IMG/VR virus record: IMGVR_UViG_3300045242_000062
Coordinates: 1-41,868 of that record
DNA: 41,868 nucleotides
Strand: one strand, 5' to 3'
DNA from: a virus
Taxonomy: Duplodnaviria > Caudoviricetes
Shown: positions 6,459 through 32,326 of the stretch, in pieces
How the letters are laid out: each line of letters starts with the position of its first letter
Numbering within the stretch: the first letter of the stretch is position 1
Program-made: the position numbers and the translations under genes
The notes under the pieces: generated by a model
What the model was told of the DNA's origin: nothing
What the model saw: only the letters and a program-made list of their open reading frames with translations
The model's database searches: none

Positions 6459-7103
6459 TCATAGGGTTTTGCGACGCACCAGACCAAGGCCGAGCAGCCC
6501 GACGCCGAGCGCCGCCATGCTCACCGGCTCCGGCACCGCGGTGGCCGAGAAATCGCCCGAGACGGAAGCGCCGAAGCTGGCCAGGGTATCCCCGTCGATG
6601 CCAATGGCCGGCGACACGTTGGCGAAGGAGAGGGATACCGCGCGCGGCAGCGCCAGGACGTTGATCACATCGGACGTGAATGAGATGCTATCCGGCGGCG
6701 CGCCAGAGGACAGGACCGCCGAGGCGCCGGTCCCCAGCACCACGTCGGAGAAAGTGCCGCTCAGGAAGTTCGTTCCCGTTCCCCCGGCCCCCGAGGTCAG
6801 CGAGAAGCTGCCGGCGTAGTGCTGGAACCCGCCGGCGCCGAGCGGCGTCACCGCGTCCGTGGACGTGATGTTGAGGTCGAAGTCCGCCGAGGTCGGTGCA
6901 CCGCCGAGGATCTGCGTAATGCTGACCGGGACATCGGCAGCGGTGATCGTCGTCGCAGTGCCGCCGGCGTTCGCAGTCGCCGTGATGGTATTGCCGGCAC
7001 CGATTTGGCCGAAGGTCAGGATGACGGCGCCCTGTGCAGGCAGGGCGAGCAGGGCAGCAGCAGAGGCAGCGAGCAGGGCGCGCAGCATGGTGGGCTCTTT
7101 CAT
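6459..7103 (-). CDS. PEP-CTERM sorting-domain surface protein
   Basis: Signal peptide MLRALLAASAAALLALPAQG; Ser/Thr/Gly-rich body; C-terminal VPEPVSMAALGVGLLGLGLVRRK. Confidence 0.9.
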   Translation of the reverse strand: MKEPTMLRALLAASAAALLALPAQGAVILTFGQIGAGNTITATANAGGTATTITAADVPVSITQILGGAPTSADFDLNITSTDAVTPLGAGGFQHYAGSFSLTSGAGGTGTNFLSGTFSDVVLGTGASAVLSSGAPPDSISFTSDVINVLALPRAVSLSFANVSPAIGIDGDTLASFGASVSGDFSATAVPEPVSMAALGVGLLGLGLVRRKTL

Positions 7104-15494: not shown

Positions 15495-15839
15495 TTAGTC
15501 CTCCAACTCAATGTGAGCATACTGCGACACCGCAGGCTCATCGCCGTCGATGTGATCGGCGTTGTGCACACAGGCCAGCGCTACGTCGTTGGTCAGCGTC
15601 AGGAACGTGTGCAGTTCGTTCGCCGGAATGCGAATCACCGCCGGCGCGCGGTAGTCGCCGATCATCTCCTCGCCGCGCCACGCTCGCACCGAGCCGCGCA
15701 TGAGCAGCGTCAGATGCGGAAATGCGTGTGCGTGCTGCGGCAGCAGCGTGCCGGCATCGGCCACGCTCCAGAGCTTAACGAACACACCGGCATAGAGAAC
15801 GAGTTCCACCTGTTCCGGCTGATGCTCTGCGCGTTTCAT
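15495..15839 (-). CDS. Cupin-fold protein
   Basis: PQHAHAFPHLTLLMRGSV...IPANELHTF metal-binding His pattern. Confidence 0.8.
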   Translation of the reverse strand: MKRAEHQPEQVELVLYAGVFVKLWSVADAGTLLPQHAHAFPHLTLLMRGSVRAWRGEEMIGDYRAPAVIRIPANELHTFLTLTNDVALACVHNADHIDGDEPAVSQYAHIELED

Positions 15840-16378
15840 TCGCACCTCATCGACACGATGACTACGATCCTGTCGCAGTCACCGACATTCTCGACCGAAT
15901 GCTGCATTAGGTTATCGAACGTCCAGGTCGAGCATGTCGTGAACGTGGCCACCTCGTCGGCACAGCGCACCAGAGCGGTCCCCGCCAGCGTGAGGTGGCA
16001 CTTCATATTGTAGAACTCCGGCGCCCAGTTCCCTGCATCACTGTGCGGCTCGATCATCTTGCCAGGCGGCAGCTTGGTGATGAGAATCGACCCCAGTTCC
16101 ACCGCGCACACCCGCGACATCAGCGCGAACACCAGTGGCCGCAACGACGGCAGTTCCTGCCAGGCGGGCCAGAACACGTTGCGGTGCTCCAGCCGCCGCG
16201 CCTCCATCGTGACCTGCGCCTCGGGCATATAACGCACGGTGATGTCGGTCATCGCCGCATGGGGCGTGCCTGGATACAGCCGCCGCTCCGGATTACGGTC
16301 CCAGAGGTGACTAGCGCGGTTCAGCTCCAACAGCACCGGCACCACGTCCACCCGATCAGCGAGTTGTACGAACCGCAT
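15836..16378 (-). CDS. Asp/Asn beta-hydroxylase-family 2OG-Fe(II) oxygenase
   Basis: ILITKLPPGKMIEPHSD (HxD), WTFDNLMQHSVEN (distal His), DRIVVIV (2OG Arg). Confidence 0.85.
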   Translation of the reverse strand: MRFVQLADRVDVVPVLLELNRASHLWDRNPERRLYPGTPHAAMTDITVRYMPEAQVTMEARRLEHRNVFWPAWQELPSLRPLVFALMSRVCAVELGSILITKLPPGKMIEPHSDAGNWAPEFYNMKCHLTLAGTALVRCADEVATFTTCSTWTFDNLMQHSVENVGDCDRIVVIVSMRCE

Positions 16379-16430
16379 CACCCCTCCGGGGAAGGGCGCC
16401 AGCCGCCCGCAGGCAGACTGGCGCCCGACC

Positions 16431-16514
16431 CTACCTGCGGCGTATACTGATCGCGATCTTGACGCTGATCGCGACCCGCACCAATATCCGAGGCAGGAGC
16501 TTGAGCTGCTTCAT
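16431..16514 (-). CDS. 27-aa basic peptide MKQLKLLPRILVRVAISVKIAISIRRR in a structured region
   Basis: GAGGAGGGAG upstream of ATG 16514; flanking hairpins. Confidence 0.55.
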   Translation of the reverse strand: MKQLKLLPRILVRVAISVKIAISIRRR

Positions 16515-16587
16515 CAGCTCTCCCTCCTCGGGTTCGGCGGCTGGACCACCCAGCCGCCGTTCCCACATCTAGCACATCGTTGCGCAT

Positions 16588-17103
16588 CTACCGCATCCGT
16601 CGCGCGCGGATATTACCCTGCGCCGTCACCGTGCCGCTGAAGTACGCCTGCGCATTCAGCCACACCGTGGTCGGTGCCGTAACGTTGTAGCGATGCGCCG
16701 ACGTTGGCGCCCGCTGATTGGTGGCACCGGCCGGAAATGTCGCGTTGACGAAAATGTCCGTGCCACCGCCGATCCCCGCACCGAATGCGTTCAGCGTGCC
16801 GCTGCCGGTGACGAAGGTCGCACCACCCGACACGTCCCAGTCACCAGCCGTAAGGGCCAGCGACACGACGTTGACTAAGGTGCCGGTCACCAGCGACACC
16901 GGCCCGGCGCTCGCGGTCAGATACTCGCCGACCTCGCCGGGCTGCGCGTCGGAGCCGTCCACCGAGCCCTTATGCATGGTCAGAGCGATCTGCTGCAGCG
17001 CATCGACCAGATCCTGGTGGTGAGCCTGCCACAGCGGCGCGTGCAACCCGTCGTCGTTCAACGCCGCAGTGTTGACCGGTGGCGATAGCCGCGTGAGATC
17101 CAT
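16588..17103 (-). CDS. Tail-associated structural protein
   Basis: Directly follows the tail hub gene; beta-rich C-domain (SLALTAGDWDVSG). Confidence 0.65.
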   Translation of the reverse strand: MDLTRLSPPVNTAALNDDGLHAPLWQAHHQDLVDALQQIALTMHKGSVDGSDAQPGEVGEYLTASAGPVSLVTGTLVNVVSLALTAGDWDVSGGATFVTGSGTLNAFGAGIGGGTDIFVNATFPAGATNQRAPTSAHRYNVTAPTTVWLNAQAYFSGTVTAQGNIRARRMR

Positions 17104-29414: not shown

Positions 29415-31607
29415 TTAGGCCGGCTGTCCCGGCCGTGGGATCGGCGTCTGTGCGAGCCGATTGGTCGTCACCATCGTCTGGTGCGTGTTGGCGATCTCGC
29501 CCACGGTCTGGTGCGGGATCTGCGCCGCCTTCGCCGCGGTCAACGCCGCCTGCGCCTGCGTGTTGCGGATGTCAGCGGCCTTCTTGTGCAAATCCACCAG
29601 GTGGTGCGCGAGCGCCATCTCCGACGTCATCTGCTCGGGATCGGACGGCTGCATGCCCTGCACGCCCGGCGGGTTGTCCGGCGCCACATTCGGCTGGCCA
29701 TAGGGCGGCGCACTGAAGTCGGCATGAATGCCGTGCACCTTGGCCGCCGCGTTGACCTTGCGCTCCTGCGCCAACGCGAAGTCGGAGGCGGCCTTAGCTT
29801 GTTTGCTTTGGATGTCAGCTTGTGCATGTTGCTGCGCAAGCTGGCCCGCTTGCTGCTGTACCTGCCCTTGCTGCTGCTGATGAGCCTGCATCCGCTGGAG
29901 CAGTTGTTCTTTGTCTTGCAGCCCAGAGGCAGCGATCAGAACATCCCCAGGAATAAGCCCAGGTTGCATACCAGCTAGTTGCACTAGTGTCGCAAATTGT
30001 TCTTGCTGGAGACTCGGGATGTCGATCCCTTCCTCGATCGTTATGTCCACATCGAGGTCGGTAATGTCGTTCTCTATCCCCACCACCTGCTGCAACCGAG
30101 GATCGTCGGGCTGCAACTGCATGCGCTGCATCATCTGCATCCGCATCTGCTCAGGCATCGCCGCGAGGCGGTCCATCACCCGGATCGGGCGGTTGATGCC
30201 CACCCACGTCGTGCCGTTGAGCTCGTCGGTGAGCCTCACCCACTTGCCGCCGGACCAGTATTCGCGCGCGGCCATCCAGCAGCTTTCGTAGACCCGGCGT
30301 GACCAGTAGCGCAGCGCGTCGGCCAACGGCTCGTTCTGCGCCGCACCGCCCGCCTGCTGGGCCAGGATCGCCCGCCCGCTGAGTTCGCGCGGATCGGTGC
30401 CCGACATCGCCGCGTTCGGCCCCGATAGCTGCATTTCCGCTGTCGCGTGTTGCAGCAACTGGAACTGCCCGGACGCCAGATCCGCGCTCTGCTCGATCTC
30501 GAACTTGAACCCCGGCATCACCTCGATGTAACCGTCCGGCTTGGCCACCTCGCGGCGGGCCTTGTCCACGTCCTGCACCGCGCCCTGCTCGGCCACCACC
30601 TGGCGCACCGACAGCAGGTGCAGCGCCTTGGAGCGCCGCTTGTTGATCTCGTCCTGCAACGAAATGAGCCCACGCACCATGCCGTAGCGCTGGTTCTCGC
30701 GGTTGATATACGCCGACTGCAACAGCAGGCTGCACGCGCTCTTACCCTTACGATCCTTGAACCGACTGCGCTGCGGATTGGCGAGAATGCCGTTCTTCGT
30801 GATCGTCGCCTGCCACCACGTACCGCGCTCGTCCCAATGGCACTGCACGACACGCACGCGGCGCCGCCGGTTGTCGGTCCAGAACGCGGTTTCCGGCCTG
30901 TCGTTATAGTAGAAATCCGTGGACGAGAACGACGCCTCGATCACGTCGTCGCCCTCGGGATACAGGCCCTCGAGTTGGTCGCGGTCCATCCAAATGACCA
31001 AGCCCTTGTATCGGCAGTCGCTGAAATCCATCGAGCGGGAATGCGGATCGTAGAAAATGCGATCCCACGGAACGTGCGTGATCGTGATGTTCGCACCGCC
31101 CTGTCCGTCGTCCTCGAGGCCGAGTTCCGCGCCGCCCGCGCCCTCGATCAGCATGTTCTCGAACACGGCGCTGCGGACCAGCGAGAACTCGTTGTCGTCG
31201 CTGATGAACCGCAGCGCCTGCGTGGCGGCCAGGGCGCGGTCGTCCTCGGCCGGCGTGCGCGCAAACGCCTTGGGATCGGTGCGTGCCTTGCGCTCCATGC
31301 CGCAGAGCAGCGAGACCTTGTCGTGGATCTTGTTGATGACGATGGCGGGCTGGCCGCGCTTCTTCAGTTCGTCCAGTTCGTCCTTGGTCCACTGGACGTG
31401 GTCGAAATACTCGCGGTCGCGCTGTGCCAGGTTGATCTCGTCCTGGCGCGCGAGTTCGGACTCCTCGAACCAGCGCACCAGCCGGCCGTGCAGATCGTCG
31501 AGATCGCGCGGATACTCGTCGGCGCCGCTGGTGAGGTCAGCGACGGCCGGCGGCGTGGACGGGCCACGCGGCTCGTGGATGTGGACGTGTAGCGCGGTGT
31601 CGCTCAT
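29415..31607 (-). CDS. Portal protein (P22-like)
   Basis: DREYFDHVQWT...RGQPAIVINKI, YDPHSRSMDFSDCRY, QDEINKRRSK, SGRAILAQQ, Gln-rich barrel tail. Confidence 0.92.
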   Translation of the reverse strand: MSDTALHVHIHEPRGPSTPPAVADLTSGADEYPRDLDDLHGRLVRWFEESELARQDEINLAQRDREYFDHVQWTKDELDELKKRGQPAIVINKIHDKVSLLCGMERKARTDPKAFARTPAEDDRALAATQALRFISDDNEFSLVRSAVFENMLIEGAGGAELGLEDDGQGGANITITHVPWDRIFYDPHSRSMDFSDCRYKGLVIWMDRDQLEGLYPEGDDVIEASFSSTDFYYNDRPETAFWTDNRRRRVRVVQCHWDERGTWWQATITKNGILANPQRSRFKDRKGKSACSLLLQSAYINRENQRYGMVRGLISLQDEINKRRSKALHLLSVRQVVAEQGAVQDVDKARREVAKPDGYIEVMPGFKFEIEQSADLASGQFQLLQHATAEMQLSGPNAAMSGTDPRELSGRAILAQQAGGAAQNEPLADALRYWSRRVYESCWMAAREYWSGGKWVRLTDELNGTTWVGINRPIRVMDRLAAMPEQMRMQMMQRMQLQPDDPRLQQVVGIENDITDLDVDITIEEGIDIPSLQQEQFATLVQLAGMQPGLIPGDVLIAASGLQDKEQLLQRMQAHQQQQGQVQQQAGQLAQQHAQADIQSKQAKAASDFALAQERKVNAAAKVHGIHADFSAPPYGQPNVAPDNPPGVQGMQPSDPEQMTSEMALAHHLVDLHKKAADIRNTQAQAALTAAKAAQIPHQTVGEIANTHQTMVTTNRLAQTPIPRPGQPA

Positions 31608-32326
31608 TGCTGCGGTTGCTGGGTTGCTGCCGCACCGGCGCCGCCTGCCATCAGGCCGGCAATGCCGTATTTGCGCAGGATTTCGATGGTGGCGTCGTTG
31701 AACACCACATGCGTCCTGTCAGGGAGAGTGATGCCAGGAACGCCGGCCGCCCGCAGCTTTTCCATAGCGCCAGGATCATTCAGCGCCGCCTGATCCTTCG
31801 CGCTGAGGCTGCCGTAGTCGAGGAAGCTAGCCGGATCGGCCTTGATGTTGACCTCGTACATATGACCGGCTGTGGGATCGGCTTTTGAGCGCCCGGCATA
31901 ATCCTGTGCCAATCGCTCATCCTGCGCGAAGTAGTGGCCGGCCTCGTCAGGATGCAAGAAACGCGCATCGAACCGCTCGAAATCTGCCGGGCTGCCGTGG
32001 TACGCGGTGAAGCCCTTGCCACCCGGTGCGTCGCCCACCATGCCGAGCACCATCGCCGGCGCCTCCTGCATGCCACGCGCCACCTCGGCCCGTGCACGAT
32101 CCATGTCCGTGCCAAGGATCGGCTGGCCACTCGATGTCATCGCCTCGATCGGGTTGAACGGGCCTGACGGCACGCCCACGGACTGCGACGCATAGGGCGA
32201 GGTCGTCTCCGTCCCCACCGGGTTGCGCATAACCTGCTGCGCCAGCGGGCCGAGCTGATTGGCCGGCGCGCTGTAGTCCTGCGGCAGCACCGTGGGATCG
32301 AACAAGCGACTGAGCCAGCCGGACAT
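31604..32326 (-). CDS. Protein with ADP-ribosyltransferase-like (ART-PolyVal type) domain
   Basis: AYHGSPADFERFD...GHYFAQDERLAQDYA...GHMYEVNI...HVVFND. Confidence 0.6.
   Translation of the reverse strand: MSGWLSRLFDPTVLPQDYSAPANQLGPLAQQVMRNPVGTETTSPYASQSVGVPSGPFNPIEAMTSSGQPILGTDMDRARAEVARGMQEAPAMVLGMVGDAPGGKGFTAYHGSPADFERFDARFLHPDEAGHYFAQDERLAQDYAGRSKADPTAGHMYEVNIKADPASFLDYGSLSAKDQAALNDPGAMEKLRAAGVPGITLPDRTHVVFNDATIEILRKYGIAGLMAGGAGAAATQQPQQ

Follow-up and report, generated by a model that had tools for sequence, protein, structure and literature searches.

A phage-borne cassette of about 200 bp, a probable type I toxin-antitoxin-like module

An element of about 200 bp in the phage genome analyzed here (41,868 bp, referred to throughout as the window) is an optional, autonomous phage cassette, recovered in 53 distinct intact copies, that combines a conserved open reading frame (ORF), covarying hairpins and covariation between the Shine-Dalgarno (SD) region and the 3' tail of the predicted mRNA. 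We consider it moderately likely that the cassette is a type I toxin-antitoxin-like module, in which RNA folding and an antisense RNA would hold a small basic peptide untranslated. A sequence-only reading of the same DNA had proposed either a type I-like toxin or a regulatory leader; the comparison of copies lends support to the former, with the antisense RNA and the toxicity of the peptide still predicted, and speaks against the latter, as the neighbors of the cassette are many and different and both orientations occur at one junction.

The phage genome and the setting of the element

The window constitutes a complete virus record and has direct terminal repeats. Its minus strand carries terminase, capsid, head-closure and DNA-ejection genes together with a P22-like portal gene, and the genome also contains a lambda-O-like initiator, a NusG-like antiterminator, divergent HTH genes, and repressor- and cro-like genes; the closest cultured capsids share no more than 43% identity with that of the window. 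Searches of the window for PF00589 (integrase), PF00239 (resolvase) and PF01656 (ParA-like) gave no match. The complete records of ~42 kb G1004, G1005, G1006, G1015, G1017 and G1019-G1021 are integrase-less like the window, with no match to tyrosine integrases or serine recombinases in any of them or in the window itself, and the window phage and these similar records are possibly extrachromosomal prophages.

The element (16382-16587) is located between a tail gene (phrog_11393) and an Asp/Asn hydroxylase gene. The latter, a member of the Asp/Asn beta-hydroxylase family, occupies 15495-16381 along with a small cupin-looking gene, the tail genes lying on one side and the ejection genes on the other; in relatives a sulfotransferase-looking gene has been swapped in, and the stretch is possibly a virion-protein modification module. 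The hydroxylase label comes from a domain search, and the cupin and sulfotransferase labels are presumptive. Elsewhere in the window, the product of a gene at 6459-7103 (minus strand) has a terminal PEP-CTERM motif (Pfam PF07589, barely above the cut-off), and a gene with an ART-PolyVal ADP-ribosyltransferase domain (31604-32326, minus strand) has the terminase on one side and the portal on the other.

Anatomy of the element

The 221 nt at 16380-16600 (minus strand) have a predicted folding energy of -122.2 kcal/mol (z = -5.36), and none of 200 shuffled sequences is as stable. A sense promoter is predicted at 16566-16574 (minus strand) from an extended -10 box, TG-C-TAGATG, that lacks the -7T, with transcription expected to start at ~16560; the box GTGCTAGAY is retained in most close copies, and diverged copies, read by eye, have TTG-N17-nAnAAn at this site. 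The perfect 10-bp hairpin CGGCGGCTGG/CCAGCCGCCG (H1, 16535-16559), which can be read directly from the sequence as the earlier reading had it, forms a hairpin at the 5' end of the peptide's mRNA and, when read on the plus strand, a predicted antisense terminator. The remaining features of the mRNA lie on the minus strand. Downstream of H1 is the SD region CCGAGGAG (16524-16531), in which GGAG precedes the ATG in 53/53 intact copies, and then the 27-residue ORF at 16514-16431, MKQLKLLPRILVRVAISVKIAISIRRR, with a net charge of +8 and strict alternation from I10 onward. Its L-L-P codons, CUCCUGCC-UCGG (16488-16499), constitute an in-ORF anti-SD predicted to close the SD in the nascent RNA, and the anti-anti-SD GGUAGGG (16429-16435), which spans the stop codon, is predicted to be able to capture CUCCUGCC and so free the SD. 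The 3' hairpin GGGCGCCAG/CTGGCGCCC (H3, 16394-16426) has a covarying stem, the 5' arm of which also contains the predicted antisense -35 box, and is followed by a 3' tail, CUUCCCCGG (16386-16394), complementary to the SD region. The ORF, the internal hairpin TCGCGATC/GATCGCGA and the 3' hairpin had all been described in the sequence-only reading and were found in the sequence as described. The stem CCGAGG..GAGCTG-ATGAAG-CAGCTC..CCTCGG, said there to sequester the ribosome binding site with the AUG in its loop, is likewise present, although at least one other fold competes with it.

A scan of the element for consensus promoters and terminators detected nothing. A longer ORF of 45 amino acids from the ATG at 16568 was set aside, as that ATG falls within the promoter box and just 10/53 copies have any in-frame ATG upstream. 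A sequencing run (X1) that is labelled RNA-Seq and flagged as probably DNA was not taken as evidence: it provides one 151-nt contig at a depth of 3, confined to the element (16388-16531), ending in the 3' tail and identical to copy L118 at 150/151 letters, and was not counted because it is one read-length, strandless contig from one study.

An optional and autonomous cassette

Copies were gathered via searches with flanking proteins and DNA patterns, and the matches were screened with either a DNA or a peptide profile. There are 37 distinct close copies (33 intact, three internally deleted and one truncated by the end of its contig) and 20 diverged intact copies, for a total of 53 intact copies, from phage and metagenome contigs, with 51 distinct peptides of 24-29 amino acids. 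In the search for diverged copies, 21 rows that scored 6.3 or less or were unscored were discarded as chance, and rows already known were counted once; L334 is the HNH-broken locus L033. Homologues in protein collections (34 at E<=0.01 and 42 at E<=0.001) are all unnamed or 'hypothetical', and one of them sits on an 8.3 Mb contig.

Among the 42 closest flanking-gene loci examined, 22 have no match to the element, and in these the upstream gene is joined to the hydroxylase or the sulfotransferase-like gene, within 10 nt in 21 of the 22, the start estimate being off in the remaining one (L042). Seven other loci carry the full element, two a deleted and two an HNH-interrupted version, and one a scar, with five other inserts and three cases of another neighbor making up the rest. 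The direct adjacency of the flanking genes in relatives bears out the word 'insert' used in the sequence-only reading. Across copies, the cassette is found next to hydroxylase, HNH, portal, capsid, tail, primosomal and GcrA genes (the last, beside one copy, we take to be alphaproteobacterial), and at a portal/scaffold-like junction four copies run along the operon direction and five opposite to it. The many neighbors and the two orientations at one junction imply an autonomous unit and not the leader of a neighboring gene. No terminal repeats are visible in the cassette alignment. The tail junction is often taken by a small unrelated ORF with an RTxxGxRHAV motif (L027-L029, L036, L122 and L144), whether or not the cassette follows it.

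Each of the 17 records with a match contains one copy, and a tyrosine integrase is present in 7/17 records with an intact peptide, so that the family includes temperate phages. Of 71 DNA-pattern matches in genome contigs a single one (L221) is genuine, and within the family of genome G001 one of 201 genomes, G001 itself, is positive. In the class (3/401) and the order (7/401) of a Mesorhizobium genome, there were matches at E 0.002-0.01 alone, which were rejected because 0/10 fit the RNA model. A tblastn search of phage and plasmid records with a 29-residue member returned no matches, and an ESM Atlas query with P0019 returned no usable match. The contig that carries the G001 copy belongs to an Acidobacteriaceae MAG; the copy sits in a prophage-like stretch (C21:130000-169000, L307-L309) with a weak integrase match, an HTH gene, RecT and a frameshifted portal, and with host-type genes at both ends; chimerism of this contig is possible.

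Several loci record the decay of the cassette. The three internally deleted copies (L006, L036, L127) have all lost the SD or the start codon and retained the candidate antisense promoter described below. In L024 (3498-3515), the 3' end alone, TCCCCGGAGGG, is left between the two genes, likely the scar of a cassette that was lost and left the SD of the next gene in place. In three cases (L003:2330-2863, L033:2172-2723, L025:3566-4111), an HNH_3 endonuclease gene has taken the place of the cassette or split it. In L025 the HNH gene takes its start from the SD and ATG of the cassette; those of L003 and L033 are antisense and lie behind a common hairpin leader that starts with GGTTAGGGTCG and resembles the cassette's GGTAGGGTCG.

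The coding region and the peptide

GGAG is found 6-10 nt upstream of the ATG in 53/53 intact copies, and the stop codon directly follows R or K in all of them. The distance from L-L-P to the stop takes five values, each a multiple of three, a result that is non-trivial in the 33 copies whose anchoring did not rely on the frame, whereas the spacing of H1, H3 and the SD varies in 1-nt steps. In the 37 standard cores, the even positions 10-20 are always I, V, L, M or A, and R, K, S or T predominate at positions 15, 17 and 19. The pN/pS ratio of the 37 cores is 0.95, which means that the classical signal of purifying selection is absent; constraint on synonymous sites from the RNA and the promoters may lie behind this value. 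From these sequence patterns, the ORF is likely a gene. The sequence-only reading had named loss of the ORF from copies that keep the hairpins as an observation that would count against it; the ORF is kept where the hairpins are kept, both being retained in the 53 distinct intact copies.

The 51 peptides have net charges of +4 to +10 and best 15-residue Kyte-Doolittle means of 1.3-2.7. At the level of sequence, they have the characters of type I toxins (under 60 amino acids, hydrophobic, with a basic C-terminus, and encoded), being 24-29 residues long with SD, ATG and stop in place and the frame kept. The suggestion that the peptide is a beta-strand was borne out in part: the hydrophobic moment is higher for beta than for alpha periodicity in 51/51 peptides, at p<0.05 against shuffles in 42/51, but AlphaFold2, given the peptide alignment, models a single helix (mean pLDDT 73.7, pTM 0.35). 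A near-identical copy at a contig end (L004:1-71) has three amino acid changes at the invariant or near-invariant positions P8, I10 and V18, possibly an inactivated allele or a read error.

RNA folding and the closing of the SD

Compensatory changes are found in 19 of the 35 consensus pairs of H1 and H3, and in the H1 stem both sides have changed in 5/6 pairs; the length of H3 ranges from 21 to 35 nt. When 31 copies were folded, the SD was open (>0.5) in one nascent, 24 tail-less and one full-length RNA, and in 28/31 nascent folds it pairs with the L-L-P anti-SD. With refined ends, the mean SD opening of the nascent, tail-less and full-length RNAs is 0.09, 0.52 and 0.26 in the 33 close copies and 0.06, 0.37 and 0.13 in the 20 diverged ones, and the tail-less RNA is more open than the full-length RNA in 30/33 close and 16/20 diverged copies. 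Opening of the trimmed RNA exceeds 0.5 in 23/33 close and just 5/20 diverged copies. The full-length RNA is predicted in silico to be SD-closed in 30/31 folds, or with refined ends in 28/33 close and 19/20 diverged copies. For the window copy, the values are 0.27 (nascent), 0.63 (trimmed) and 0.42 (full-length). In silico replacement of GGUAGGG lowers the opening from 0.52 to 0.06 in the 33 copies and from 0.37 to 0.05 in the 20 copies. Shuffled tails lower the opening too, to 0.34 in the close and 0.16 in the diverged set, against 0.26 and 0.13 with the real tail.

Duplexes between the SD region and the tail are more stable for cognate partners (mean -9.8 kcal/mol) than for swapped ones (-8.9 kcal/mol), a difference reached in 1/5000 permutations, in 8/5000 for 16 hand-picked divergent types and in 3173/5000 for a downstream control, all of these permutations treating the copies as independent, with relatedness not controlled. 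Covariation is absent between the SD and the in-ORF anti-SD (1561/5000) and between the anti-SD and GGUAGG (1594/5000), both of which are conserved pairs. With refined ends, the predicted SD-locking switch is modest.

A candidate antisense RNA

On the plus strand, the motif C-T(G/A/T)G(C/A)-N17/18-(T/G)AnnnT lies over the end of the ORF in 53/53 copies and in the window corresponds to a predicted promoter, TGGCGC-N18-TATACT (promoter A, 16419-16448, plus strand). Its spacer is constant at 17-18 nt while the -10 box, measured from the stop, shifts by 9, 8, 6 or 2 nt; in one clade, where the -10 box is weak (GATGAT), the -35 is a perfect TTGACG. A 17-bp spacer, TTG in the -35 box and frequent lack of the -7T are features of alphaproteobacterial promoters according to an excerpt of PMC8407463. 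By a promoter score devised post hoc, after the data had been viewed, the minimum found for promoter A is reached by 5.0% of flanks and 6.5% of shuffles, and synonymous recoding attains the observed score in 4.6% of cases for the close set and 15.9% for all copies. The -12T is provided by a rare NTA codon, the fourth before the stop, in 44/53 copies (ATA in 40), and an ATA codon stands at I10 in 40/53; elsewhere, ATA accounts for 2/144 other Ile codons and for 19/281 in 16 phage genes. The conservation of the -35 box may owe to the RNA needs of the H3 arm.

H1 is equally stable on either strand in 53/53 copies and on the antisense strand is followed by a mean of 4.0 T in the next 8 nt, a U-richness that the AT-rich sense promoter of the opposite strand also explains. 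We infer an antisense RNA that would start from promoter A and end at H1 and its short U-rich run; across copies it would be 108-123 nt long and cover the ORF and the SD, and in the window it would have ~115 nt (16455-16569, plus strand), spanning H1, the SD and the greater part of the ORF.

A weaker alternative, promoter B (TTGACG-N17-CAATAT, 16459-16487, plus strand), occurs in 53/53 copies, yet its TTGAC derives from the codons GTC-AAG and cannot be separated from codon bias, with 37-40% of synonymous recodings keeping the promoter. In 42/53 predicted antisense folds its UUGA is unpaired, and an exposed UUGA would suit a U-turn kissing loop.

Interpretation and alternatives

If the cassette is a type I toxin-antitoxin-like module, it would work as follows. 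A sigma70-type promoter would give an mRNA of ~175 nt from ~16560, the L-L-P codons of which would pair with the SD during synthesis. Once the RNA is complete, its 3' tail would keep the SD closed, through base pairing with the SD itself or by occupying GGUAGGG. With the tail trimmed back as far as the base of H3, GGUAGGG would capture the in-ORF anti-SD and leave the SD free, and the trimmed mRNA would then be silenced by the antisense RNA of ~115 nt, which, from a promoter over the end of the ORF to a stop at H1, would pair with the ORF and the SD. After loss of the phage DNA, or a halt in antisense synthesis, the peptide would be made and, as an amphipathic beta-strand, would damage the inner membrane. 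The peptide is probably membrane-toxic, and the cassette likely pays off by maintaining the phage in the lysogen or through abortive defence. That the toxin is a single amphipathic beta-strand forming sheets or barrels in the membrane, in contrast to the helix of the membrane type I toxins described so far, that the antitoxin promoter is embedded in rare toxin codons and that the whole retains integrase-less temperate phages extrachromosomally is a bolder version which we regard as doubtful.

The same RNA anatomy and antisense control could instead serve a non-lethal accessory function in the lysogen, such as superinfection exclusion or the binding of membrane proteins or nucleic acids. The cassette is found nearly always in phage contigs and has its own promoter within a late operon, as is typical of accessory genes expressed in lysogens. 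The peptide also differs from the helical type I toxins described in excerpts of PMC8309996. We nevertheless find an accessory role unlikely, since the predicted multilayer locking of the SD and decay that strikes the toxin first, in 3/3 deletions, are what is expected of a harmful product.

That the element acts as a structured non-coding RNA, or is a small palindromic element that is mobile, and that the ORF arises only incidentally from its hairpins and promoter boxes, would fit the pN/pS of 0.95, the overlap of each of the invariant residues (L-P, I10, K19 and the last Arg) with RNA or promoter motifs, and the persistence of start-less copies. It is very unlikely, however, given the SD, ATG and stop in 53/53 copies, indels that preserve the frame, a two-residue periodicity in hydrophobicity for which hairpins have no need, the use of the cassette's SD and ATG by the HNH gene of L025 and the lack of visible terminal repeats in the alignment. 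It is hardly credible that the ORF is a leader peptide or attenuator for the downstream hydroxylase gene, whose SD, GGAGGG (16387-16382), comes after the tail: hydroxylase genes do follow many close copies, and in the window's clade the CCCUUC of the tail can pair with the SD of the next gene, but downstream genes vary widely, two orientations exist at one junction, many copies have no GGAGGG behind them, and in relatives the same genes are joined without a leader. The toxin-antitoxin-like reading remains the one we prefer. If it is true, type I systems would extend to uncultured phages beyond those of enterobacteria, a non-helical membrane toxin would become possible, a beta-strand toxin being a surprise to specialists, and there would be a reason for the persistence of some complete, lambda-like, integrase-less phages in their hosts. 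The family offers 51 natural variants of the peptide together with the RNA structures that match them, in an easily cloned 200-bp unit, so that toxicity, fold and switch are directly testable.

Comparison with known systems

The family is uncatalogued in the libraries and literature searched. With 30 peptides against Pfam/NCBIfam at E<=1, 0/30 match a catalogued type I family, the sole match being PspG (E 0.02-0.09); neither a PHROGs search with the window peptide nor an Rfam search with the cassette gave any match. Literature searches found no description of the cassette, although a member could be listed in T1TAdb, in paywalled papers or in supplementary material (for instance, Table S7 of PMC2887945). 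By sequence, the cassette belongs to none of aapA, ibs or hok. The published systems are characterized below from excerpts of the cited sources, in which known type I families are described as few and narrow in host range, and the membrane toxins, in a review, as all alpha-helical (PMC8309996; PMC12390103).

The aapA/IsoA system of Helicobacter pylori shares with the cassette a small basic peptide and, as a prediction for the latter, an in-ORF anti-SD hairpin during transcription (PMC6733600). In aapA3, metastable SD hairpins, one of them within the ORF, and a 5'-3' lock are relieved by activating 3' trimming (PMC6733600), and a 5'-3' SD lock, activation by 3' trimming and, as in aapA/IsoA, a cis-overlapping antisense RNA are all predicted for the cassette. 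The best antisense candidate of the cassette spans the ORF too. AapA1, however, is an alpha-helical transmembrane peptide (PMC8309996), whereas the peptide of the cassette is beta-periodic and phage-borne.

In ibs/Sib of E. coli, the antitoxin overlaps the coding sequence as well as the ribosome binding site, as predicted here, and the total size is similar (~140 nt for ibs, ~200 for the cassette; PMC4147584). Ibs is, in contrast, a shorter hydrophobic helix without a basic C-terminus (PMC8309996), ibs loci are chromosomal repeats, and tandem copies are common for ibs and ldr, whereas the cassette is single in each record.

With hok/Sok the cassette shares a predicted switch by 3' processing, the inert hok mRNA being made active in this way (PMC4147584), as well as enrichment in prophages and mostly a single copy per phage (bioRxiv 10.1101/2025.08.07.668861). 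The cassette differs in having no mok-like coupled leader; Sok covers the 5' UTR alone (PMC4147584), and Hok phages, in the excerpted preprint, nearly all infect Enterobacteriaceae (bioRxiv 10.1101/2025.08.07.668861).
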